From: Candidatus Thorarchaeota archaeon
Lineage (GTDB): Archaea > Asgardarchaeota > Thorarchaeia > Thorarchaeales > Thorarchaeaceae
Reading direction: 5' to 3'
NCBI GenBank assembly: GCA_048882385.1
Contig: JBHLRQ010000055.1
Span: 1 to 14,254 of the forward strand
DNA: 14,254 bases
Under the pieces are notes generated by a model. The model was not told the origin of the DNA. It ran no database searches and saw only the letters and a program-made list of their open reading frames with translations. Within the stretch, counting starts at the first letter, position 1. Each line of letters starts with the position of its first letter. Positions 1 through 13,892 of the stretch are shown one piece after another. Position numbers and translations under genes: made by a program.

Positions 1-70
1 AAGTCAATGTGACAATAAACATCGAGAGTATAATGATTGAAATCAAGAGTCGCTTGCTCATATCCCTCAT
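1..70 (-). CDS. 5' end of a secreted/membrane protein running off the window (signal-peptide-like N-terminus)
   Basis: Manual translation from ATG at 70: MRDMSKRLLISIIILSMFIVTLT..., a basic n-region plus hydrophobic h-region, open to the window edge. AGGTG SD-like motif at 71-75 is better spaced for the second in-frame ATG at 61. Not in the ORF track because it is truncated. Confidence 0.7.
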   Translation of the reverse strand, partial: MRDMSKRLLISIIILSMFIVTLT

Positions 71-198
71 CACCTGCAGCCTGATGATTACGTAAACTAG
101 AGACATACCTATTGAAAAGGTATGTCCAGACATATCATGAAATTCATCTAATTATGTTTGCGTTATAAATCAAAAATTAGTTAATTCACAGGTATTGA

Positions 199-3100
199 CT
201 ATTCTCTCTCATCAATGCCACGTTTATTGAGAAATTTATGTAGATCAATATCAGTGTCTGGAAACTCACTCTCCTCGCAAAGAACTATGTATTCCTTTTC
301 AATTGCTTCGCTAACAAGTGTGCATCCTCTAGATTCTGGAACACCATACTTTGACAAGGCTTTAGCAAGGTAGATTGGTTTTGAGCAGTGTTCCGACTCT
401 AGATCAAGTAAGACTTGCTCAATAGATACATATCGCTTTGGCAGCTTCTTTTTGTCACGGATTTTGTGATACTTGAGTAGCTGGCCATCCATTGTCTCAT
501 CAAAAACATAGTTGATAATCTCTGTAATTCTGGTATCCATTACTGATGGTGGTTTGGCCTCCATATAGAAATCATCGAGATATCTGCTGGCCTCTTTCGC
601 AAACTCCTCAATCTTCCTGTTATGCTCAATTGATGCTGAACGCACTGTCACAAAAGCACAGATCAAGTTCCTAGTCTGGACAGCACGAATGATATCAGAT
701 ATTGGAATAACACTCAAAGATTCCTCATCAAGGAATTCAAACTCTTCTCGAAAATGAGTGACAGCTGATATGAAGGCAGCAACAATGCCCTCTTCAAATC
801 CTCCTTTGACAATACGTGAATATATTGGGATACCACTCGCTTTGTGCATCACAATAACTCCGATGATGTTATCAGCATCATCAAAGCGTCTTTGGTTTGC
901 CAGGTCAATCTTGAATTCTGCTTTCTTTTTGCGTATGTAGACAAATCTTCCAGACACAGATATTATAGCGATGGCAGCCACTATTGCAACTGGAGGGCCA
1001 TATATCGTCACCAATATTTGCCAGAGGATACCTGGAGGAGTGTACTGAAGGACTTGATATTCAAAAGTTCCAACTAATTCATAGTTTGCTTTTATAGCAA
1101 AAATACGAATTGAATATCCCGTATCATCAACCCATTGTGGCATAATTGAAACAAAATAGACTCCGGGTGAGTTAGGTAACTCAGACAAGTAACCTTCCAT
1201 CACAATTCCACCAAATCTTGTGAGTCTATAGGAAACATTGGCACCTGAAATTGAAAAATTCGTTTCAGCTTCTACCAGCTGCAGAGAAATTTCTAAGTTG
1301 CTCAAACGAGTCCATAAGGGAGCATCCATGATGACTCTCATTCCTCGTGCTGTAACAAAAAGCGTGAATGATTCGAAATCACTTTGATACCCAGTTTTGT
1401 TCGCATATATGGTAAATTCATAACTTCCTATTCGACTTGCATCCAGAATGATGATATATCCTTCAGCACCGTCAGCAAGTGGTGTGATCATGTAATCCAA
1501 ATTTTCGTAGCTCGTGAAGTTCAGCTGCAAATCAGCCAAGCTTATGTTAATAGGATTGCTACCCGTTTTCTCAAAGAAAACAAGTAGCTCAAATGAGGTT
1601 TCAACTTCTATAGAAGCTGGAGAAGATGTTCCAATAATCTGAAGCTGTGTTGATATCACTGTTGCAGTAAGTGTGAAGGATTTCAGCTGTGTTTCATGAT
1701 CCGCAAGTGATGCTCTAATTAGGAGAGTGAATGTTTCAGTATCGGCTGGAGTTAGAATAAATGAAAAGAACCCATCTCCTTCGCTTGAAGCATTTGAGTG
1801 GCTAATTCCGTTTTCAGGGGTCGTACTAAACACAGCCACGGTGGCATTATCCAAACCATAACCAGTCCCATTAGTAAATCTCACAACCAATCTATATTGC
1901 TCTCCAAAACTGATTACAGCAGAGGTCCCATTCTCTAGGGTGAAAGTAGTAGATTTTTCACCCACAAACATGAAGAGAACGTCCTCTCCAGGATTGTAGT
2001 GATCTTTTGATACTGAGATTGTTATTGCATAACTGTCTGAGTGAATAGCTGTAAATTCGAGTGAGTAGTCACCACCGCCAAGATCGTTCAGTTCTCCCCA
2101 GGTGACTCCATCTGGTGTGCCAGAATAATCAACACTCACATTTGCACCAGGGATACCGATACCGAATGCATCGGAGTATGTGAAAGTTACCAGATATTTA
2201 TCACCTATCCCAACATTAGCAGTTGGATTGTCAATAGTGAGCTCATTATTCGCGAATCTGATTGTAATTGTGAATGTACATGATGAATCGTCATAATAGG
2301 GACTGCTTGCATTGACAACAACAAGATGGGAACCAGGTCCTACCAAAGAGGTGTCGAAGTTACCAATCCATCTGTTTAGAAGAGGGTCTGGCACGAAGTT
2401 GATTGTCGTAGATGACCAGTTTGCTGAAATTGATGCAAGAGGATTGGTCAGGAATTCACTATTGTCTGAGTCTTGGAAGTAGACAAAGTTAGAAATGATT
2501 TGTCCACTTTCGATTTCATCAGAGCTCCAATGAGGGGTGAGTGTTGTTTTATGATAAACTTGGAAACTGGCACTACCAAATGCTAATTCGGTTCCGTTGC
2601 TCCAAAACACTATGACTTCCCAAATTCCTGCGGTTGTATTAGTGGCTCCAACCTCCAACTGGGTACCGTTGATAGCACCATCTATCCCCCCACTTATCAA
2701 CTCAGTAAACCATTTTGTGTCGTCAGGCATCAACCAAGTAATGTTGACATCTTGTAAGGACCCTAGAATCGGAGCAGTATCGCCGATTTCGATCATCGGT
2801 TTTGTAACGTTTGTACTTCTAAACAAAGTATCTGGAAGCCAGGTCATTCCAGGTTCGATTAGCTTCAGAGTCTGTATATTTCTAGCGTAATTTGGAGCGT
2901 TTATGTGAATCTCCCACCATCCCAGGTTGTCCAAAGTAAGAATTGAATTTGGAATCACAATCAATCCAGAAGTGATTGAACAGGATGATGTCACAACTGT
3001 GCCAGATGGATTATAGATTGTGGCATTCTCCCAATCAAATGGAGTGTTAATGAACATAGTAAAATCATCCAACACGGGCAATGTACCAATAAAGGTGTAA

Positions 3101-4251
3101 AACTCGATTAGCGACGGAGTATTCAACTCTGCATTAAAATGAACACCATCATCTAGAAGAGTGAGTGACTTTGTAGAATTGATATATCTGTGACTCAACA
3201 AGGTGGCTATGTAATCAAATGAATAAGCAAGATCACTAGTAAGCTCAATCATGACATCATCAGTCTGCCAGAGTGATGAGTTAGTTATACTTGCATACCC
3301 TGTAGTGGCTCCAATTACTGTAGCTGAATTCAAACCGATGTCCATTGTTATTGCAGCAGCGTCAAAGGTAGGATTAGTCGCACCAAGGAATTGGATATTG
3401 TCGAGTATGAATCCAATGAATTGTTTATTGTGATAGAAAGATCCATTCATGTAAATTCCGATTTTGAATTCAAACTGGCTATCGATACCTGACAATCCAA
3501 CCTGAATATTCCCACTATTGTACCACAATGAAGTTGTCATGGTTTCAGTAGTATTCGTCCAAATCTCGATATCATTAGCAAATACCTTGAGCGTTACATT
3601 CGAGCTCAGATCAGGACCTTGATCGTAAAGGTAGTCAAAATTGAGAATGAAGTTCTCCAAATATGGTGTATTGTTCACAAACTGGGTCCAATAGACATAG
3701 GATCCATTAGCATAGAAATAGTTGCCTCCTGTCCCATATCCGTTTGCAGTTACTCCAATCTCTTGGTTGGTGTATTCTGCAAGCATATCCATTGACGGAT
3801 CACTACCGCCACTAATAGCATCCCAACCATATGGATAGAAAGAAACGCCACCAGTTGGATTTGTGGTTTGTCCCTCGATTCCCTCTGATAGACTACCATT
3901 TGCGACATATAATCTCTTGAGATTCCAGAGATTGACAGAGGCTCTACTACCAACCCAATTATTTGCTGTATCAAGTGTCAGAGCTGTTTTAACATTGGTT
4001 TTTGAATCAGTTGCAGCTTGTAAAGTAGCTGAAGTCTTGTTTCCTCTCTGTTCAATAATAGCAGGATTGAGATTTGCACCAATTGTGAAATGATCTGAGA
4101 GAAGATTAGTTTCCTGAGGTTTTAGTTCGTGAGCCTTACCAGCTGTTTTTGGCTCAAAGTAGTTGTCAATAGAACCTGTATCAAGGGGATTAGAGATTCC
4201 ACTAGCTAGAATAATGAGTACAATTACAGCTAGTATTGCTCCTCTTTTCAA
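199..4251 (-). CDS. Giant single-pass membrane protein: Ig-like/beta-sandwich ectodomain, TM helix, cytoplasmic longin-like plus winged-helix-like domains (paralog A)
   Basis: 1357-aa ORF. Likely start is TTG 4251 (GAGGT 7 nt upstream, giving MKRGAILAVIVLIILASG); TTG 4272 is the alternative. About 5 repeated ~100-aa beta-rich units, TM PPVAIVAAIAIISVSG followed by RKKK, and a C-terminal IIGVIVMHKASGIPIYSRIVKGGFEEGIVAAFISAVTHFREE longin-type pattern. Confidence 0.85.
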   Translation of the reverse strand: MKRGAILAVIVLIILASGISNPLDTGSIDNYFEPKTAGKAHELKPQETNLLSDHFTIGANLNPAIIEQRGNKTSATLQAATDSKTNVKTALTLDTANNWVGSRASVNLWNLKRLYVANGSLSEGIEGQTTNPTGGVSFYPYGWDAISGGSDPSMDMLAEYTNQEIGVTANGYGTGGNYFYANGSYVYWTQFVNNTPYLENFILNFDYLYDQGPDLSSNVTLKVFANDIEIWTNTTETMTTSLWYNSGNIQVGLSGIDSQFEFKIGIYMNGSFYHNKQFIGFILDNIQFLGATNPTFDAAAITMDIGLNSATVIGATTGYASITNSSLWQTDDVMIELTSDLAYSFDYIATLLSHRYINSTKSLTLLDDGVHFNAELNTPSLIEFYTFIGTLPVLDDFTMFINTPFDWENATIYNPSGTVVTSSCSITSGLIVIPNSILTLDNLGWWEIHINAPNYARNIQTLKLIEPGMTWLPDTLFRSTNVTKPMIEIGDTAPILGSLQDVNITWLMPDDTKWFTELISGGIDGAINGTQLEVGATNTTAGIWEVIVFWSNGTELAFGSASFQVYHKTTLTPHWSSDEIESGQIISNFVYFQDSDNSEFLTNPLASISANWSSTTINFVPDPLLNRWIGNFDTSLVGPGSHLVVVNASSPYYDDSSCTFTITIRFANNELTIDNPTANVGIGDKYLVTFTYSDAFGIGIPGANVSVDYSGTPDGVTWGELNDLGGGDYSLEFTAIHSDSYAITISVSKDHYNPGEDVLFMFVGEKSTTFTLENGTSAVISFGEQYRLVVRFTNGTGYGLDNATVAVFSTTPENGISHSNASSEGDGFFSFILTPADTETFTLLIRASLADHETQLKSFTLTATVISTQLQIIGTSSPASIEVETSFELLVFFEKTGSNPINISLADLQLNFTSYENLDYMITPLADGAEGYIIILDASRIGSYEFTIYANKTGYQSDFESFTLFVTARGMRVIMDAPLWTRLSNLEISLQLVEAETNFSISGANVSYRLTRFGGIVMEGYLSELPNSPGVYFVSIMPQWVDDTGYSIRIFAIKANYELVGTFEYQVLQYTPPGILWQILVTIYGPPVAIVAAIAIISVSGRFVYIRKKKAEFKIDLANQRRFDDADNIIGVIVMHKASGIPIYSRIVKGGFEEGIVAAFISAVTHFREEFEFLDEESLSVIPISDIIRAVQTRNLICAFVTVRSASIEHNRKIEEFAKEASRYLDDFYMEAKPPSVMDTRITEIINYVFDETMDGQLLKYHKIRDKKKLPKRYVSIEQVLLDLESEHCSKPIYLAKALSKYGVPESRGCTLVSEAIEKEYIVLCEESEFPDTDIDLHKFLNKRGIDERE

Positions 4252-4355
4252 GCTTGCAACCTCTGAGCCCAAAAATAGAGCAATTCATCCTAGTTATAAC
4301 TATAATTCGTATCAGAAAACAATGAAAAATTGCCTGACCTTCCAATTATTGGAAA

Positions 4356-7300
4356 TCACGCAGATTCAGATAGTCCTTCATCATTACGGGGATAAAGAGG
4401 AACAATATAATCTTCTTCGAGGGATTTGACAATCTTGATGTAAACATCATCCTCTGAAATGTGAGTGGAAGTCAATAAACGTACTAACCGAACAAGATTG
4501 AATGAACCTTCGGTTTCCTCTAATGAAATTGCTTTTTCTATGAATTTCAGTGATCTTGGAAACTTCTTGTCACCTACTTTGTAACTCCTAACAAGACTAC
4601 CATCCATAAGATCATCAAATAACCACTCGATCGATTTGCCTGTTTTGGAATCGATGACTTCAGCACTATGGTGTGCAAGAGTATCATCAAACATCATGCC
4701 AATTGCACGGGTATAGCTGATCATTCTTGTTTCCTGTTCTGTTGATGGTGACGTGATAGTAATAAAGGCGCACACTAGATTTTCAGTGGGAACTGTACGA
4801 ATAACGTCGGATATTGGAATCAGATTATATGTTGTTGATGGAGCCTTTGAATTCATTTCTTCTCGGAAATGCATACTGGCTGTGATGAATGCAGAAAGCA
4901 TTCCTTCTTCGAATCCACCCTTGAATATCATTGAGTAGATTGGTACTCCGCTCAACTTGTGAAGAACTATAAATCCGAGAATATTATTTGCATCGTCAAA
5001 CCGATTCTTGATTTTTACAGCTCTGACGTGTTTTTCTCTTCTTCTTCTAGATCTGACTCGTTGTCCAGCAATTGTAGCAATGGCGAATGTTGCTAAGATA
5101 CCAATTGGCCAGCGATATGTAATCAATGTCTGAATCAACCGAGCACTAGTATCGACTAATGGAACAAGAGTTGCGCTGAAATCTTGCGCCATTTCATGAT
5201 GGTCCTTCTCGATTGAAATCCTTACAGTATATGTTCCACTTGTAGCATCTGGCATAACTATAGAGGTTGCATAAACACCTGGATTTGTTTCATTCATTAG
5301 GGTGTCAAAGTGGAGGAGACCACCAGGTCGATAGATAGCTAGAGTAACATTGGCATCAGAAACCAAATTCCGCGTATCGGATTCGACTACCTGAACTTCG
5401 ATACTGAGCGGAGAATACTCGGATCCTACTAATGTTGAAATTGATGCCACTTCGACAGCCACGTTATTAACAAGGAATGAGAGAACATGAGTTTGGTTCT
5501 CGAATCCAACCTTAGAGAAGCGGATACGAATGCTGTAATCACTAGGTTCCAATGGAATCAGTGTCAGGTTATAATGACCATTGCCAGAATTCTCAATGGA
5601 TGTCCACTCAGACCCTTCATCATAAACCTCCACTGTCGCGCTGTCAATCCCTGTTCCATTGTAAGACATGGCATAGAAGTAATCAAAGCTATATTCTCTT
5701 CCATATATTAGGGGCTCCAACGGTCCAGTTGGAGCATCAAGTGTTGTTAGGAAATGAGAAATAATCGTAATCTCAAGAGGCGTGGTTTCAAAGTAAGAAG
5801 CCGTAGATACGATATTGACTATGAATTCACCTGCACCCACTTCAGCAGTATCGAAATCAGCTTGCCACCAATTGTTCACCAAATCAGAGGTGAAGGAAAC
5901 ATCTGTGCCAGCCCACTGTCCAACTATTGAAGCTCCATCATTCAGAAGGTATTGACCAGTTTCATTATCTTTGAAGTTTATTACCACTGTCACAGGTTGA
6001 CCAACGACAGTAGATAGAGTATCAGAAAAGACCAATTCTAATACAGATGTGTGATGCAATTCAAAATCATAGCATCTGTATGCTAATTCAGAACCATTTG
6101 ACCAAAGATATCGAACACCCCATATGCCAGCTGTTGTGTTCGTGGGCCCAAATGTAACAGGAGAACTGATAGCAGAACCCAGTCCACCAGATGAGCTTGA
6201 TTCAAACCAGATCGTGCAATTTGGTAATGCCCAAGTAAAATTGACAGGATCGGATATAACAGGAGTTTCGAAAACGGTTCCAATAGAAACCGATAGGCGA
6301 GCTAAATCAAAACTATGGAAAACATTCTCGTTCACCCAACCTGGAAATCCTGGGTCATATCGCTCAACCTCAGCTGAAGATGCATAGTTTGGTGCATCAC
6401 ACGTGATTTTCCACCATCCAAGTCGATCAAGAATAGATTCAGGGATGGTAATGACTTGACTTCCAAATATGCAGCTAGAAGATACATCACTCAAGAAAGG
6501 ATCATGGACTGTAAAGTTCTCCCAATCACCGGGATGGAATATTTTTAGTACTAGGTCATCATAGATACCATAGTATCCAATATATGTGTAAATCTCCAAT
6601 ATGCTATTTTTCCCAGATTCAATTGAATAAGCTACTCCTTGTTCCAAGATGTCCGTAGTCCAACTCGAATTTATGAATCTGTGATTCAACAATTTTACGG
6701 AGTAATCAAAACTAATGGAAACGTTTGAATCGAATGATATTGGAAGACTGGAATCAGACCAATAGGAGCTGTTAATAATAGTACAAGTCCCAACACCTAA
6801 AGATTCAGTGACCGTTTTACTAGCACTCCCTGCATTGAATGTTAGACCAACCTGTTCTGGTATAGGAGGTGTATTTCCAGTGAAAACAACATCATCAATC
6901 ATTACAGTAAGATAGTTTGAATCGAGAAAACCATAGTCAGTAGGATAAAGAGCTAAATTTGAATTAATTGCGAGACGCACATCAAATTCGAAGGTGTCTG
7001 GTGCTCCGACAACACTGACATTTATTGCGCCCGAAGAATACCAAACATCCCTGCTTCCAAGTTCTGGCAAACTCTGATTCCAATAACGAGTACCATTAAT
7101 CCAAACCTCTAAACAAATAACATCATCGAGAGAAACATCCAAGGGTCCATTAAGATATAAGAAATTCAAACTGAAAACAAAGTCCTCTAAATAAGGTCGG
7201 TTATCAATCATCTGTGACCAAGTGACTCTCGTATCTGCATCATGTAGAAACCTTGTGTTTGAACCAGTTCCAGCAATGTCACCCTCATTTTCTAGACTCA

Positions 7301-7862
7301 CGAAGTTGTTCTGGCTTTCAATGTACTCACTTCTTTGAATTGTGTTAGGGTTTGTTGAATAGCTATAAGAAGTCCATCCAAATGGGTAATATGAAGCAGA
7401 ACCATCAGGATTTTCATTTACACCTGGAATTCCCTCGTCGAACGTTCCATTTACCGCATATAACCTCTTGAGATTCGTTACAGTGGCATTTGCTTCACTT
7501 GCTACCCAGTCATGAAGTGTATCGATATCCAGTGTATCGTTTATGTTTTCCATTGTATCTGTACGTGCAGATACACTACCAGTTCCAGAGTATCCTATCT
7601 GTTCGATAGGAATAGAATCTATTGCCCCGGACGCGGGGATTGTGGTGTGGGTTTCAGAAAGTGTCCAAATATCCTGAAACAGCGAAACAGGAGATACAGA
7701 GCTTTCAGGTTCCAGAGGAGAGGGAAAGCTTCTATTGTCTATTGGTATAGAAGAATCAATAGACGAAAGTTCCTCTGAGAATTGCCTAGAAAAGTGAGAT
7801 ATAGGAAATGCAATGAGAAGTATAAGAAGTATGCTCATGTTTCTACTATTTCCTATGTGCAT
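4356..7862 (-). CDS. Giant single-pass membrane protein, paralog B (Ig-like ectodomain, TM, longin-like plus winged-helix-like tail)
   Basis: 1185-aa ORF, start uncertain (ATG 7874/7868/7862/7838; TTG 7913 in track). Colinear with paralog A (NLKRLYxxNG, YPxGW, PYLExF, LGWWxI, TNTTAGIW, WSNGxELA, RFDDAxNI, KGGFEEG). TM WPIGILATFAIATIAG followed by RVRSRRRR. Confidence 0.85.
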   Translation of the reverse strand: MHIGNSRNMSILLILLIAFPISHFSRQFSEELSSIDSSIPIDNRSFPSPLEPESSVSPVSLFQDIWTLSETHTTIPASGAIDSIPIEQIGYSGTGSVSARTDTMENINDTLDIDTLHDWVASEANATVTNLKRLYAVNGTFDEGIPGVNENPDGSASYYPFGWTSYSYSTNPNTIQRSEYIESQNNFVSLENEGDIAGTGSNTRFLHDADTRVTWSQMIDNRPYLEDFVFSLNFLYLNGPLDVSLDDVICLEVWINGTRYWNQSLPELGSRDVWYSSGAINVSVVGAPDTFEFDVRLAINSNLALYPTDYGFLDSNYLTVMIDDVVFTGNTPPIPEQVGLTFNAGSASKTVTESLGVGTCTIINSSYWSDSSLPISFDSNVSISFDYSVKLLNHRFINSSWTTDILEQGVAYSIESGKNSILEIYTYIGYYGIYDDLVLKIFHPGDWENFTVHDPFLSDVSSSCIFGSQVITIPESILDRLGWWKITCDAPNYASSAEVERYDPGFPGWVNENVFHSFDLARLSVSIGTVFETPVISDPVNFTWALPNCTIWFESSSSGGLGSAISSPVTFGPTNTTAGIWGVRYLWSNGSELAYRCYDFELHHTSVLELVFSDTLSTVVGQPVTVVINFKDNETGQYLLNDGASIVGQWAGTDVSFTSDLVNNWWQADFDTAEVGAGEFIVNIVSTASYFETTPLEITIISHFLTTLDAPTGPLEPLIYGREYSFDYFYAMSYNGTGIDSATVEVYDEGSEWTSIENSGNGHYNLTLIPLEPSDYSIRIRFSKVGFENQTHVLSFLVNNVAVEVASISTLVGSEYSPLSIEVQVVESDTRNLVSDANVTLAIYRPGGLLHFDTLMNETNPGVYATSIVMPDATSGTYTVRISIEKDHHEMAQDFSATLVPLVDTSARLIQTLITYRWPIGILATFAIATIAGQRVRSRRRREKHVRAVKIKNRFDDANNILGFIVLHKLSGVPIYSMIFKGGFEEGMLSAFITASMHFREEMNSKAPSTTYNLIPISDVIRTVPTENLVCAFITITSPSTEQETRMISYTRAIGMMFDDTLAHHSAEVIDSKTGKSIEWLFDDLMDGSLVRSYKVGDKKFPRSLKFIEKAISLEETEGSFNLVRLVRLLTSTHISEDDVYIKIVKSLEEDYIVPLYPRNDEGLSESA

Positions 7863-7946
7863 CCCCATAAACATCCAAAGCAGATTTCTAAGAGGTTGAG
7901 TCCAGAAAGTCAATATAATCTTACTTCGGATATCAGTTAATATTCA

Positions 7947-8759
7947 CTATTCACCATTCGTTACAATACGTCCTTGAGCAATGACATCGTGTTTGTGGAT
8001 GCTCTCAAGAGACCTGGCTTCAGCAAACATCTCAAGGTCCCGATCCTGATATTTCTCCTTTGCATGCTGGAGAATGTTCCGGCAGACATCTTCAACAAGC
8101 AGAGGATTATCATGCATCTCTTTTGTGACATGAACCTCATCCTCTAGCTTCAAGAGAGAGTATGTCTTGCTGGAGAAGGACCTTTCAATTATCTCAATCA
8201 TGGTCCCGTAAGTCGGAATCTCCTCCACTTCACCAACTATTCGCAACTTTCCAAATGCTCGTTGAATATGCGTTAATCCAGCATTATTTGCCATGCAGTG
8301 TGGACAGACAGTATTTCCAATGACCTTTACTTCCACATCATGCATGAATGGTTTGCCCTCTTCCATCGTAGTTTTTGCAGTGACATCACAGACCTCCCAG
8401 GTCCGTTTTTTAGAAACCGGAGTATGACTCACATAGCCAAACTCAAAATCGAACTTCACTTCACCACGCTTGAAGCTATGTTTCTTTGAGAGACCTTCTA
8501 GAATACGCATCTGGAGGTGTTCAATGGAGGAGTGAACTCTAAATTGGTCACTGAGCTCCTCTGTCATTGATTCAACAAGACGGGACATATGGACGCCCTT
8601 CAACTCTGCGGATAGATCGATTGTGATATCGACTTTTGGCAGGATATGATGTCTAAGACCACTACGCTCAGTTATCACAAAGGTCTTGAGATTCTTTACC
8701 CCAACCTTGCTAAGTTGAATCCTGTGTTTTGGTCGTTCGTTTTGAGTATCAATCACCAA
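7947..8759 (-). CDS. mptA: GTP cyclohydrolase IB family (FolE2/MptA)
   Basis: Family motifs DTQxExP...LSKVGV, KGVHMSRL, TVCP, THIQR, YSLLKxxDE, NPxxVED, ESIHxHD. Probable start TTG 8759 or GTG 8756 after GAGG. The track start at 8834 overlaps the upstream gene. Confidence 0.88.
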   Translation of the reverse strand: MVIDTQNERPKHRIQLSKVGVKNLKTFVITERSGLRHHILPKVDITIDLSAELKGVHMSRLVESMTEELSDQFRVHSSIEHLQMRILEGLSKKHSFKRGEVKFDFEFGYVSHTPVSKKRTWEVCDVTAKTTMEEGKPFMHDVEVKVIGNTVCPHCMANNAGLTHIQRAFGKLRIVGEVEEIPTYGTMIEIIERSFSSKTYSLLKLEDEVHVTKEMHDNPLLVEDVCRNILQHAKEKYQDRDLEMFAEARSLESIHKHDVIAQGRIVTNGE

Positions 8760-8790
8760 GTTGTACGCCTCATGGATGTCCGGGATGCAA

Positions 8791-9240
8791 TTATTCCTTG
8801 TAACAACCAGTGTTTCCTTCACTCTCACTAACACAGACCTTTACCTTGAAGTCCTCTGGAAAGTCCAAGTGTTCATGTATATACTGAGCAAGGAATTCAG
8901 CAGATGTCGCCTTTGTGGGTATTAGCACACAGTCTTCATCAGGGAAGACGTATCGCTTCTCACCAACTGTAACTTCGATGAACCCTTCGGACTTGCTAAC
9001 GTTGATGGTCTTTGAATCTCGAGGTAACAACACTTTATGATCTAGAGTCTTGCAAATATCGAGAGCCTTTGATTTTACCAGTCTAAAATCATAGACCATC
9101 CCATCATCGTTCAATGGTCCTGTGACTTTTATTGTCAGTGAATAATTATGACCGTGAAGGTTCTCTATTTCACCCTCACTTTTTAGAAAGTGTGAAGCAC
9201 TAAAGTGCATCCGTTGATCTTTTACATATATACTATACAA
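8791..9240 (-). CDS. 6-pyruvoyl-tetrahydropterin synthase/QueD family (COG0720) protein, PTPS-III-type ExxHGH motif
   Basis: FSASH...ENLHGHNY...DF...LDH...TSAE motifs. Start TTG 9240 lies 7 nt after GGAGG. Adjacent to and co-oriented with the GTP cyclohydrolase. Confidence 0.88.
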   Translation of the reverse strand: MYSIYVKDQRMHFSASHFLKSEGEIENLHGHNYSLTIKVTGPLNDDGMVYDFRLVKSKALDICKTLDHKVLLPRDSKTINVSKSEGFIEVTVGEKRYVFPDEDCVLIPTKATSAEFLAQYIHEHLDFPEDFKVKVCVSESEGNTGCYKE

Positions 9241-9304
9241 TAGATAGCCTCCAGGTACTAATCTGGCTACCAACAGGAGTATATGTAAAACTGTCGGAAG
9301 TGCA

Positions 9305-11062
9305 CTATTGATTAGTTCCACGTTGTCGCTCGAAGGCTTCAATCAAGTCGTCTACGGTTGTTGCTTGAGTTGGGTCTTTATCATCTCGCCATCGACCAGT
9401 AAATCGCGGAAATCGAATTGCTAGTCCACTATCCTTCAAGTATTGTCTTCCAGCAGGATGTGTTGGACTTTTAGTTATTTCATCACCAAGAACTTCAATG
9501 ACCTTGACTGGTTCGAACCAGACGTCAGCATTCATATCCGATATTACCTTTGCATGTTTATTTTCAATCTTGAACTCGTCAAGGCGTTCCTTGAACTCAA
9601 CCAACACGTCATCAGTAAAACCAGTACCAATCTTACAAACAGTTGGATATGTATCATTATTTTGGTCATAGACAGCAGCTAGAAATGCCCCATAGAGACC
9701 AGCCCTCTTCCCACGACCATGAATTGCACCAACAAGCACCAAATCTGCAGAGTCTGCAAGACCTTCTGTGTATGATGCCTTCAGCTTAATCCAAAGCCAG
9801 CTTCTTGAGCCAGCCTGATAGGTTGAGTCCTTGTGGACAGCCTTAGCAATAACACCTTCATGACCTGAGCTGATAGATTCTTCAAATATCTCTTGGAGTC
9901 TCTCTGGGTCTTCTGTCAATTCTGCTGTTGTGAGCTGGACTCGGTCAGTTACCTCTATTGTTTTCTCTAACAGATCTCTTCGCTTCAACATAGATTCTGA
10001 TGTGACGTCTTCTCCATTGAGATAGAGAATATCAAAAAGAAAAATCGCCACAGGAACTTCTTTTCTTGTAGCTTCGATTTCTGTCTTTCTTCGTCGCCTC
10101 ATTAGTTCTTGGAATGGTCGCATATCGCCTGTTTCAGGATCTATTGCTACACACTCACCCTCCATGACACAAGTATCTGCTTTCACATGTTCGATGACTA
10201 GGTGTACCACATCAGGATATTGCTCAGTGATGACTTCTTGTCGTCGAGAAAAGAGAATTACCTCTTTTCCGTTCTTATGGATTTGGACTCGTTCACCATC
10301 ATACTTGTTCTCTACGAGTGCTTTTCCACCAGCCTTCTCAATTATCTCAGAAGGTGTTGAAAGCTTCTTTGCAGCCATCATTCTGATGGGAACACCAACC
10401 TCAGTCTTTATAGATCTCACCGCATCTATTCCATGGTTTGCAAGTACTGATGCCACTCTACTTAGATCACTACAAACATTGAATGCATTCTCAATCTCGC
10501 CTCGAGAGTCTCTACTCCCGGTGAAGGCTGTTGCCAATGCATCAATGAGCCCCATATCTCCTAGGCCAAGACGAAGAGAACCGGTGACAGTTCTAAGAAT
10601 GTATCGGGCTTCGATTGGTGCGGCATCAGTTAGCAATCCAACAAGTTTGGAAATCTTGGTTTTACTACTTCCAGACCCTGACAAATTTGCAGTCTGATCC
10701 AAGACATCATAAACGTAGTCTACTGTAAGGTCTTCTGCAAACAAAGTTGCTTGAGCACTCTCCAGCAATAAATGCTCAGCTGTGCTCCCAATATCTCCAG
10801 TCTTCTGTAGGATTTTCTTCACATCTCCCTCAGAAACTGATGCCGCAGAAGCTACAACTTGAACAGCCATCTTCTCTGCGATTCCAATCTCAGGTTGGCT
10901 TTTCCAATCAGGATGCAGCTTGCCCATTGTGAGAGATATTATCTCTCCTATTTCTGAAGAATCGGCTCTTGACAGAAGCTCTGAGAACAGTTGTATTTTA
11001 TCAAGAGTTCCACTTGTGTTCTCGATATTATCATATGCTTGAGCCAAGATTTCGTAAAGCAA
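9305..11062 (-). CDS. lig: ATP-dependent DNA ligase (archaeal)
   Basis: Motif I ENKYDGER, III EGE, IIIa FDILY, IV EGVIAK, V WIKLK, VI IRFPRF, with an N-terminal DNA-binding domain (LRLG). Probable start TTG 11062 after GGAGTGA. Confidence 0.97.
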   Translation of the reverse strand: MLYEILAQAYDNIENTSGTLDKIQLFSELLSRADSSEIGEIISLTMGKLHPDWKSQPEIGIAEKMAVQVVASAASVSEGDVKKILQKTGDIGSTAEHLLLESAQATLFAEDLTVDYVYDVLDQTANLSGSGSSKTKISKLVGLLTDAAPIEARYILRTVTGSLRLGLGDMGLIDALATAFTGSRDSRGEIENAFNVCSDLSRVASVLANHGIDAVRSIKTEVGVPIRMMAAKKLSTPSEIIEKAGGKALVENKYDGERVQIHKNGKEVILFSRRQEVITEQYPDVVHLVIEHVKADTCVMEGECVAIDPETGDMRPFQELMRRRRKTEIEATRKEVPVAIFLFDILYLNGEDVTSESMLKRRDLLEKTIEVTDRVQLTTAELTEDPERLQEIFEESISSGHEGVIAKAVHKDSTYQAGSRSWLWIKLKASYTEGLADSADLVLVGAIHGRGKRAGLYGAFLAAVYDQNNDTYPTVCKIGTGFTDDVLVEFKERLDEFKIENKHAKVISDMNADVWFEPVKVIEVLGDEITKSPTHPAGRQYLKDSGLAIRFPRFTGRWRDDKDPTQATTVDDLIEAFERQRGTNQ

Positions 11063-11097
11063 AGACTCACTCCCATATTTTATGGCCCACCACATGC

Positions 11098-11480: not shown

Positions 11481-12518
11481 ATGAAGGATTGGCAGAACCT
11501 GATCCTGTATGGCGATTGTCTTAACGCCATTAGAAAATACCATGATTCCCTCAAAGGACAGGTTCGCCTCATCTATATTGATCCACCTTTCTTCTCAGGA
11601 ACAGATTACACATTGAAGACACGATCAAGTGGAGATAGTAGTTCTGCAGGTATGCTGAAAGAAGAAAACACGTACAGTGACAAATGGGAGGGAGGTCTTG
11701 AAGAATATCTAGATTTTATGAAATCAAGACTTGAAGCTATGAGATCTCTTCTCAAAGAAGATGGGTCACTCTGGGTTCATGTTGACTGGCATGTTTCACA
11801 TTATATTAAGGTCATTCTTGATGATGTGTTCGGATATTCAAATTTCGTAAATGAAATAGTGTGGAAGCGTACCAATAGTCCAAAATCGCAAAGTAAGGGA
11901 TTTGGAAGTCAACATGATGTCATCCTACTTTATGCCGCTGATGCTTCGAAGTTTAGTACAAATCAAGTTTACAAAGCTCATAATGAAAAATCTCTGAAAC
12001 CCTATAGTTACGAAGATGAAATTGGAAGATTCCGGCTCATAGAGATTGAAGCTCAAGGTATTCAAAGGACTGAGAAACGCAAACAGTTTGAATGGAGAGG
12101 TCGAAAAGCACCCTATCTCTATCGAAAGGAAACTCTAGATGATTGGTGGGAGAAGGGACTCATCTACACAAGCAAGAATGGAAGATACACAAAGAAACAG
12201 TATCTTGCAGATATTCCAGGAATTCCTGTTTCTGATCTATGGATTGATATTCCTCCTGTCCAAGGATTGTCAAAAGAAAATACTGGATTTCTAACACAAA
12301 AACCCGAAGCATTGCTGGAGAGGATCATTGAATCAGCATCAGACGAAGGTGATCTCGTTGCAGATTTCTTTTCAGGATCTGGAACAACAGCTATTGCGGC
12401 AATTGCTACTGGACGTCGTTGGATTCTTTGTGATTCATCTGAAACTGCCATTACTGTTACAAGAGAGAGAATTGGGAGAATGCAAGACCAGACTCTGTAC
12501 AATGTGATAAATATATGA
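11481..12518 (+). CDS. Site-specific DNA methyltransferase, N6-adenine/N4-cytosine family, beta class (Mod-like)
   Basis: Catalytic IYIDPPF precedes the SAM-binding DFFSGSGTT. Also contains NEIVWKR, HDVILLY and TQKPEALLERII. Confidence 0.92.
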   Translation: MKDWQNLILYGDCLNAIRKYHDSLKGQVRLIYIDPPFFSGTDYTLKTRSSGDSSSAGMLKEENTYSDKWEGGLEEYLDFMKSRLEAMRSLLKEDGSLWVHVDWHVSHYIKVILDDVFGYSNFVNEIVWKRTNSPKSQSKGFGSQHDVILLYAADASKFSTNQVYKAHNEKSLKPYSYEDEIGRFRLIEIEAQGIQRTEKRKQFEWRGRKAPYLYRKETLDDWWEKGLIYTSKNGRYTKKQYLADIPGIPVSDLWIDIPPVQGLSKENTGFLTQKPEALLERIIESASDEGDLVADFFSGSGTTAIAAIATGRRWILCDSSETAITVTRERIGRMQDQTLYNVINI

Positions 12519-12818: not shown

Positions 12819-13892
12819 TTAATCCATCCAGACCGGCTCATGAGAATCTGTCGTTTCCTTGAAAACATCCCCCATTGCGTTTTTGTCCCATCTTCTCATA
12901 ACAAAATAGACCACCATGCCAATTAGAATTGCCACAGCGAAGGGAGCATAGATTAGAAACATGTTATAGTACGGAAAGTAGCCAAATCCTACAGTCAAGA
13001 AGAACAATATGATTCCAATGGGTATTGTAACAATCGTACCCACACCTAGTCTTCGGGAAGCACGTCTCTTTTTCTCCCACTCTCTCACACCCCAGATTAC
13101 AGTCTGCATTTCCTCTTCATTCAAGGGTGAACCTCGTTCGACCTCTACTTTTGCCACTTGTGGATGCATTCCATAGACGTCTGTAACTCGTAAGAACGCT
13201 GGTTCATGTCTCCAAAATGCCCCCTTGATGATTAGGGCAAGGAAGAATGGAAAGAAGAAGTTATACAGGAGTGAGGAAAAAAGGCTGGCTATTATATAAA
13301 GTCCAAGCACATCAATCATTGAAAGCATGGAGATCACAACAGGGACCAGAATCAATCCAGATGTATAGGTTAGAACAAGGAGTAGAACTAGGGAGCCTAC
13401 ATAGTCACCGAACCATGGTTTTCGAGGCATTCTCGCCAGATGGAAAGCTAGGAGGACTTCACCAGCCTCAGACCTGTTCAACATAAGCTCTGTCATGGGT
13501 TCAGAAACAATTACTGCGCTAAAAACAGGATTGAAAGTGGAGGTGATGAATGGATCTTTGCTCTGACGAATCCACACTTGTGCATTAGAGGGAACCAAGA
13601 TTTTTTGATGGACACGACCAATCAATTCATGAAATGATGGATTTGTTGGTGGATTTTTGTATAGAACACTCAGAATCAGAAGAAACACAAAATAAAGCAA
13701 AGTCCCGATGGATAGTATCAGTAGAAAGGGTCCGAGTTGCAATGTATATAGACTTGAATATCCAAAGAAGACATAGATAATTCCTGAGAGAGGCAAAGCA
13801 ACGAGCGCTACAAATATCGCAAGAACTCCTCTCGAGATCATGGCAACTCGTGTGCCAAACCATTTTACCAACCTACTTGAGCTCGTGCTCAT
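12819..13892 (-). CDS. Polytopic membrane protein, M48/HtpX-like fold with degenerate zinc site
   Basis: About 6 TM segments. VWIRQSKDPFITSTF...AVIVSEPMTELM...EVLLAFHLARM follows the HtpX layout but has FHLAR in place of HExxH. ATG with AGGTG SD. Confidence 0.7.
   Translation of the reverse strand: MSTSSSRLVKWFGTRVAMISRGVLAIFVALVALPLSGIIYVFFGYSSLYTLQLGPFLLILSIGTLLYFVFLLILSVLYKNPPTNPSFHELIGRVHQKILVPSNAQVWIRQSKDPFITSTFNPVFSAVIVSEPMTELMLNRSEAGEVLLAFHLARMPRKPWFGDYVGSLVLLLVLTYTSGLILVPVVISMLSMIDVLGLYIIASLFSSLLYNFFFPFFLALIIKGAFWRHEPAFLRVTDVYGMHPQVAKVEVERGSPLNEEEMQTVIWGVREWEKKRRASRRLGVGTIVTIPIGIILFFLTVGFGYFPYYNMFLIYAPFAVAILIGMVVYFVMRRWDKNAMGDVFKETTDSHEPVWMD

Follow-up and report, generated by a model that had tools for sequence, protein, structure and literature searches.

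Tandem genes for predicted surface glycoproteins with a longin-type cytoplasmic tail in a Thorarchaeota genome

The window analysed here covers bases 1-14,254 of contig C55 in a Thorarchaeota genome (G000; 3.7 Mb, 95% complete), for which the closest database relatives found by protein search carry the NCBI names Thorarchaeota, Sifarchaeia or Promethearchaeota archaeon. It holds two long minus-strand open reading frames (ORFs), genes A and B (Table 1), which an earlier prediction made from the DNA letters had described as a tandem pair of receptor-like proteins coupling an immunoglobulin (Ig)-like ectodomain to a cytoplasmic longin-like domain. Both frames are present as claimed, and the proposed build was found in each of them: a signal-like segment, an ectodomain, a single transmembrane (TM) helix, a basic stretch and a conserved tail of ~230 amino acids (aa). 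BLASTP shows A and B to be paralogues across their whole length, with 31% identity both in the ectodomain (894 columns, E 8e-109) and in the distal part together with the tail (489 columns, E 4e-55). The 5' end of a third gene, C, runs off the window start. It is highly probable that these genes encode surface glycoproteins whose tail adopts a longin fold.

Table 1. Predicted features of genes A, B and C in the window
Feature	Position	Strand	Remarks
Gene A	199..4272	-	Putative type-I surface glycoprotein; 1357 aa from TTG 4272
Ectodomain of A	1018..4182	-	~570-aa N-terminal region, then putative Ig-like repeats
TM helix of A	949..1017	-	Residues ~1086-1108; Kyte-Doolittle 19-mer 2.37
Basic stop-transfer and juxtamembrane helix of A	871..933	-	Tail residues 1-21; sequence RKKKAEFKIDLANQRR
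Longin-type domain of tail A	475..870	-	Tail residues 22-153
Small winged-helix-like domain of tail A	280..468	-	Tail residues ~156-218
Acidic-aromatic peptide of A	229..252	-	DIDLHKFL; C-terminus, after a short linker
Gene B	4356..7913	-	Paralogue of A; 1185 aa from TTG 7913
TM segment of B	5064..5126	-	Residues ~930-950; WPIGILATFAIATIAG then QRVRSRRRREK; read from the translation
Longin-type domain of tail B	4590..4985	-	Approximate; placed by alignment to A (alignments A1, A3)
Gene C, 5' end only	2..133	-	Open-ended ORF off the window start; ATG 133 or GTG 73

Membrane topology was read by rule, hydrophobicity being scanned with Kyte-Doolittle 19-mers at a cut-off of 1.6. In A, two hydrophobic 19-mers scored above 2.3, one at residues 12-30 and the other at 1086-1104. 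The TM segment of B is less hydrophobic than that of A and falls below the scan cut-off, and the N-terminus of B carries the stretch MSILLILLIAF. Clusters of Arg and Lys lie directly C-terminal of the TM segments of both proteins. The ectodomains contain 27 (A) and 21 (B) N-X-S/T sequons, about twice the 14.8 and 10.8 to be expected given the composition of each, while the two tails contain none; Lys plus Arg make up 3.7-3.8% of the ectodomains versus 12-15% of the tails. Charge around the TM segment, sequon distribution and composition together place the tail in the cytoplasm, which bears out the orientation proposed earlier, and they support A and B as predicted archaeal single-pass glycoproteins with the N-terminus outside and the C-terminus inside.

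The description of the ectodomain as Ig-like and beta-rich holds for the relatives better than for the two proteins of the window. Precomputed Pfam beta-sandwich domains are present in 44 of 71 relatives, with Big_1 in 34 of the 71. In A, Big_1 reached 16.2 bits, below its cut-off of 34.9, and in B the Pfam families Filamin, YtkA and MG2 reached 14-16.5 bits, all below cut-off. A profile of the family found a weak match to an intimin/FdeC-type chain among PDB sequences (E 0.0016). For the N-terminal 550-600 aa of the ectodomain (residues ~31-600), searches of Pfam, NCBIfam and PDB sequences found nothing, and an ESM Atlas search with this part returned only Ig-like clusters of its own family, with scores of at most 0.82. 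From these domain matches, the Ig-like label is weakly supported for A and B themselves and better supported in their relatives.

The tail was modelled with AlphaFold2 for A only, using an alignment of 29 sequences (A1) and five models. The tail A model has a predicted local distance difference test score (pLDDT) of 84.9 and a predicted template modelling score (pTM) of 0.81, all five models scoring 83-85, and the juxtamembrane helix (tail residues 2-21) was modelled with pLDDT 94-96. Secondary structure assigned by DSSP runs, as helices (H) and strands (E), H2-21, E23-30, E36-41, H48-65, E75-77, E82-86, E90-96, H102-119 and H134-147, and continues beyond the longin part with E156-158, H166-177, H186-196, H200-212 and E216-218. 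After the juxtamembrane helix, this is the beta-beta-alpha-beta-beta-beta-alpha-alpha order of a longin domain with a five-stranded sheet. It is also the order that the original prediction had drawn from the sequence strings IIGVIVMH, IPIYSRIV, FEEGIVAAFISAVTHFREE, LSVIPIS, IIRAVQT and LICAFVT, all of which are present in the translation of A. Tail B matches profile A1 at E 3.6e-89.

When the tail A model was compared with known structures, the top 50 matches were all longin or roadblock proteins, with longins ranked first. The match values were 11.6 (rmsd 3.3 Å) and 128 for Sedlin (2j3w_A), 10.2 and 117 for both Sec22b and AP-3 sigma, 10.1 and 119 for a VAMP7-type longin, 9.3 and 129 for a Lokiarchaeal longin (8yqg_B), and at most 7.7 and ~98 for roadblocks (LAMTOR, MglB, MglC and Asgard Roadblock3). 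Foldseek agreed: its four matches at E <=0.001 were AP-2 sigma or mu, the remainder belonged to the same superfamily, and its top list comprised AP sigma/mu, VAMP7, Sec22b, TRAPP, Gtr1/2 and LAMTOR. The longin fold suggested earlier for the tail was thus recovered by the model and ranked at the top by both searches.

Two more specific identities were considered for the tail. Roadblock/LC7 (PF03259, MglB type) has the element order alpha-beta-beta-alpha-beta-beta-beta(-alpha), with one C-terminal helix, and neither this order nor a Robl_LC7 match was found. For NPRL2/NPRL3 (GATOR1), the Pfam families NPR2 and NPR3 gave no match in tail A, nor genome-wide at E up to 1.

The longin part is followed by a small C-terminal domain, which was also folded alone (alignment A2; pLDDT 71.7). 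Foldseek found nothing for it at E 0.001, and many of its weak rows were winged-helix DNA-binding domains, so that these weak matches to the model suggest a winged-helix-like fold. Across 22 sequences the domain is acidic, with a median isoelectric point (pI) of 5.1 and a median net charge of -3.5, which fits protein binding and argues against DNA binding. A His/Cys pattern (HC...GC...C-E-x-H; window ~265-410, minus strand) is retained in the A and C types but missing from B and other clades; judging from the residues, it could be a metal site.

At the very end of the protein, an acidic-aromatic peptide is typical of A- and C-type tails and is missing from B-type tails. The pattern [DE][FILMV][DEKNSTG][FLWI]xx[FYW][FLM] occurs within the last 45 residues in 52 of 71 relatives, with close variants in most of the others, and the C-type versions read DMEFxDFF or EIDFAEFF (relatives P0003-P0067). 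With two aromatic residues in an acidic tract, the peptide looks like a short linear docking motif.

Conservation differs strongly along the protein. In a comparison of A with 16 A-type relatives, the longin part was 71-88% identical and the C-terminal domain 49-71%, versus 52-67% for the Ig-like region and 33-60% for the N-terminal ectodomain; ectodomain identity among the paralogues within this genome is 25-37%. By these identities, the outer part of the protein diversifies and the inner part is held.

The tail also has soluble relatives. Profile A1 found two cytoplasmic proteins encoded on contig C23, one of 403 aa (E 1e-9) and one of 439 aa (E 1e-8). The 403-aa type forms a family present in 77 of the 87 genomes of the class. 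An alignment of 21 soluble members (A5) was matched by hhalign to A1 with a probability of 96.6% (E 6.4e-10) over 193 columns that cover both the longin and the winged-helix parts. On this profile comparison, the tail and the N-terminal half of these soluble proteins (~400 aa) are homologous; none of the soluble members has a significant Pfam family. The soluble gene at C23:7472-8680 lies in a same-strand cluster (C23:600-8700) together with genes for a PAS protein, a Robl_LC7 protein, an Arf-like small GTPase, two unknown genes, a histidine kinase and a MarR-like protein. A more distant candidate, a 308-aa protein on contig C10, was found weakly by A1 (E 0.03) and aligned to it by hhalign at 65% over 38 columns, a weak link; this protein reaches 25.7 bits against the Pfam family Fuz_longin_1 (cut-off 26.1) and also has winged helix-turn-helix matches. 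Liu et al. (bioRxiv 10.1101/2020.10.19.343400) describe, in the accessible part of their text, a family of NPRL2-like longins with a small C-terminal domain in most Thor metagenome-assembled genomes, as well as fusions of NPRL2-like longins to other domains, including two-component domains, in Thor and other Asgard archaea. An asCOG category of NPRL2-like longins is also named in the accessible part of PMC9834061. We infer that the soluble family of ~400 aa fits the description by Liu et al. as far as that text goes, and the C23 cluster echoes the two-component fusions reported there.

The genome contains six matches to the tail, namely A and B on C55 and one each on contigs C165, C59, C111 and C34. 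The C111 frame (1703 aa) ends with the same 25 residues with which the C34 frame begins, so these two are one gene of ~1865 aa split by a contig break, which leaves five genes. The fragment of gene C carries the n-region and h-region of a signal-like segment, and its start, VMRDM plus a hydrophobic stretch, matches the start of a 1789-aa gene located 3' of the A orthologue in genome G044. There, the genes for DNA ligase, PTPS and GCHY-1 are followed on one strand by genes of 1178, 1354 and 1789 aa. Given this match of the open ORF at 2-133 to the third gene of G044, the array in the window would be B-A-C, cut by the contig end. Contig C165 (5393 bp) consists almost wholly of one 5'-open frame of 1698 aa, of C type, and is probably the remainder of gene C across an assembly gap. 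Genome G033 has the same three tails consecutively, again as B-A-C. The linkage of paralogues in tandem, which had been proposed to recur in relatives, is therefore seen across genomes, whereas the notion of a pair gives way to a B-A-C triple within a multigene family.

A maximum-likelihood tree of 45 tails placed the A clade (100/98) among the C-type tails of the genus and B in a separate clade (100/99), so that A is a recent duplicate of C, and B is older. Within the class, tail A as query had matches in 80 of 87 genomes (1-6 each), and overall the family numbers 2-8 copies per genome there. With profile A1, 211 of the 301 genomes sampled across the phylum had a match at E <=1e-5. Among the matches listed, the near-full-length strong ones (E <1e-50) come from family f1 only, plus one f12 genome. 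In that f12 genome (G156), the tail lies on a contig of 2.7 kb (C331) and matches the Thor-type profile at E 1.3e-52; either contamination at binning or a transfer could explain it. With an array defined as tail starts at most 8 kb apart on the same strand, 29 of the 150 strong matches listed fall into 13 arrays from five genera (g1, g9, g10, g13 and g15), which is a lower bound since many contigs are short.

Matches in five genomes of four other Asgard families are weaker, with E between 1e-6 and 1e-21 apart from one at 1e-52. The frames that hold them are mostly 1100-1900 aa long (range 441-1933, the shortest being clipped by contig ends). At 11 of the 12 loci inspected in these families, a hydrophobic 19-mer of at least 1.9 and then a basic stretch stand directly before the match, the remaining one being soluble; Pfam scans of 12 tails from these families found no longin family. 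Database relatives of one such tail (P0200-P0203) are 1313-1367 aa long with 38-43 sequons, and in three of the four both the N-terminal and the C-proximal hydrophobic segments are above threshold. This matching build in other Asgard families indicates that it is not peculiar to Thorarchaeota.

Alternative starts were considered for the gene models. For A, position 4251 (1350 aa) is more likely to be the start than TTG 4272, and the database copy of A (P0003), 1350 aa long and 100% identical, begins at residue 8 of the window ORF. B most likely starts at an ATG within 7874-7838, for instance at 7862 (~1168 aa); this coordinate, at which the original prediction had ended its region, is the ATG of MHIGNSRNMSILL. 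Located 5' of the array on the same strand (window 7947-11095, minus strand) are genes for a folE2-type GTP cyclohydrolase (GCHY-1), a PTPS-like protein and an ATP-dependent DNA ligase. The order of ligase, PTPS-like gene, GCHY-1 and array is also kept in G044 and G052 (same genus), and GCHY-1 stands directly 5' of the array in G019 too, a member of another genus (g9). Further along the window, an N6/N4 DNA methylase gene (11481-12518, plus strand; Pfam N6_N4_Mtase, E 7e-47) was identified, with no restriction enzyme recognised alongside, and a 357-aa ORF (12819-13892, minus strand) showed a weak DUF2207_C match only.

We lean towards viewing these proteins as a family of Asgard type-I surface glycoproteins with a cytoplasmic longin/winged-helix docking platform. 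The large, fast-evolving and sequon-rich ectodomain would bind external ligands, partner cells or surfaces. The predicted single TM helix joins it to a small, strongly conserved cytoplasmic module, composed of the juxtamembrane helix, the longin-fold domain and the winged-helix-like domain and ending, in the A and C types, in the acidic-aromatic peptide. Tethered to the membrane, the module would dock a cytoplasmic partner beneath the surface protein, and such a docking role for the tail is, in our estimate, somewhat on the probable side. The likeliest partner classes would be a longin/roadblock protein serving as dimer mate (either the neighbouring paralogue or a soluble relative) and, reached via that dimer, one of the genome's ~30 small GTPases. 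The heterodimer of A and B through their alpha-1 helices, put forward in the original prediction, would be a dimer of this sort. Docking of this kind has eukaryotic precedents, by analogy, in TRAPP, Mon1-Ccz1, SRX-SRbeta and Ragulator.

A number of results weigh against the docking-platform reading. The longin assignment comes from one predicted model, that of tail A. Searched at E up to 10, Pfam returned no longin family (Longin, Sedlin_N, Sybindin, Fuz_longin_1 and others) for tail A, and scanning the 29 A1 tails one by one gave none either. NCBIfam yielded no meaningful match, and neither did PDB sequences, whether searched with the single sequence or with the profile. Genome-wide, there are 30 Pfam Ras matches and 30 Arf matches, largely at the same loci, and none of them lies on the contigs of family members (C55, C165, C59, C34 and C111). 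No GTPase, roadblock or other signalling gene flanks the arrays in G000, G044, G052 and G019, and the Roadblock-GTPase-kinase surroundings of the soluble gene are not conserved, since a Robl_LC7 match was found within 6 kb of it in none of five genomes from other genera. Among the sequencing runs listed, 19 are DNA runs and none is an RNA run. Many eukaryotic longins, such as SNAREs and the adaptor sigma and mu subunits, do not act on GTPases. In the window, the Pfam scan found no small-GTPase gene, and neither a GTPase nor a roadblock gene flanks the C59 copy. Because no GTPase gene is linked, the signalling to GTPases put forward in the original prediction is argued solely from the roles of longin and roadblock proteins elsewhere; by that analogy, a small GTPase as the partner of the tail is a tentative suggestion, and we consider it unlikely. 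More doubtful still is the boldest version, in which these would be widespread Asgard receptor-like proteins and a prokaryotic forerunner of the Ragulator/GATOR, TRAPP and SRX-SRbeta platforms; their module, by itself or dimerised with neighbouring paralogues or soluble relatives, would directly recruit or regulate small GTPases. If it were true, cell-surface events, such as contact with a syntrophic partner, would be coupled to the control of internal membranes or of the cytoskeleton.

Among the alternatives, the one that survives best, at a rather low probability, is a structural envelope. The proteins would then be the main surface coat or adhesins of cells without an ordered S-layer, and the tail would only oligomerise or anchor them, for instance to a membrane skeleton, and relay no signal. 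Several copies per genome, very large glycosylated ectodomains and arrays that no signalling gene adjoins are all in line with such a role. Cryo-tomography of a cultured Lokiarchaeon, as presented in the accessible part of PMC9834061, showed many complex surface proteins and no ordered S-layer, and according to the accessible part of PMC10933270 roadblock and longin domains often dimerise. However, the tail is the best-conserved part of the protein (71-88% versus 33-67%) and has soluble homologues, which together suggest a specific shared partner and not a simple anchor. The envelope proposal overlaps with a docking platform, and sequence alone does not separate the two.

An improbable alternative is that the longin tail is a sorting device, acting in the manner of SNARE longin domains or of the small adaptor subunits, which steers the surface protein to protrusions, vesicles or division sites via coat-like or ESCRT-like machinery, with the end peptide as its sorting motif. 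The conservation of that acidic-aromatic C-terminal peptide in 52 of 71 relatives would suit this idea. Nevertheless, the peptide is missing from B-type tails, the arrays have no linked coat gene and no SNARE motif is present. Furthermore, longin SNAREs have their longin domain at the N-terminus and their TM segment at the C-terminus, and here the order is reversed, with the TM segment N-terminal to the longin domain. Very improbable is a membrane-tethered transcription factor that binds DNA through the winged-helix domain, at the membrane or after proteolytic release: a winged-helix-like fold does follow the longin domain and DNA-binding winged helices account for many of the weak Foldseek rows, but the acidity of the domain described above and the absence of any Pfam HTH family match speak against it. 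We likewise give little credence to a modelling artefact, in which the tail would be an unrelated alpha/beta domain: no longin or roadblock family matches at the sequence level, the alignment is shallow (29 sequences from one lineage) and tail residues 41-70 have pLDDT 71-72, but the five models score alike, the order of secondary-structure elements had been predicted independently beforehand, and the soluble C10 relative comes close to the Fuz_longin_1 cut-off, though it is only weakly connected to the tail.

Of the eukaryote-like traits of Asgard archaea, some of the best known are their longin and roadblock proteins and small GTPases, and on the docking-platform reading the family would offer a concrete physical link between the cell surface and eukaryote-like cytoplasmic machinery. 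The tails of ~230 aa provide defined baits for partner finding. As this conserved longin type escapes sequence-profile libraries, counts of Asgard longin domains would be underestimates.

The original prediction knew of no characterised system with this architecture. Our literature search agrees on that point, in that no report of a fusion between a giant surface glycoprotein and a longin module was found in the literature on Asgard longin/roadblock transmembrane or surface proteins, and PMC12962969 makes no mention of 'longin'. On the other hand, Asgard longin proteins and NPRL2-like longin families and fusions are already known from Liu et al., whose accessible text mentions two-component domains as fusion partners, not surface proteins. 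What appears to be new is the occurrence of giant type-I surface glycoproteins with a longin module, in tandem arrays, across several Asgard families. The solved Asgard roadblock/longin structures (Roadblock-Longin 8yqg/8yqk, Prometheoarchaeum Roadblock3 9jue, LokiRag 9m28/8yl2) are, by their titles, soluble proteins or GTPase fusions, and tail A shares 6-16% sequence identity with these proteins. A possible likeness, by analogy, exists to Ragulator on LAMTOR1 and to the SRX domain of SR-alpha on SR-beta, where a longin/roadblock surface at a membrane positions GTPases (PMC10933270, in its accessible part). Those systems are anchored by a lipidated or separate membrane protein, while the predicted module described here is fused to a receptor-like ectodomain. 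The eukaryotic longins (sedlin/TRAPPC2, Sec22b, VAMP7, Ykt6, the N-terminal domains of AP sigma/mu and SRX of SR-alpha) have no detectable sequence similarity to the tails, and they differ in layout as well: in the proteins of this family, the predicted longin domain follows the TM segment, C-terminal of a giant extracellular part, and is itself followed by a winged-helix-like domain.

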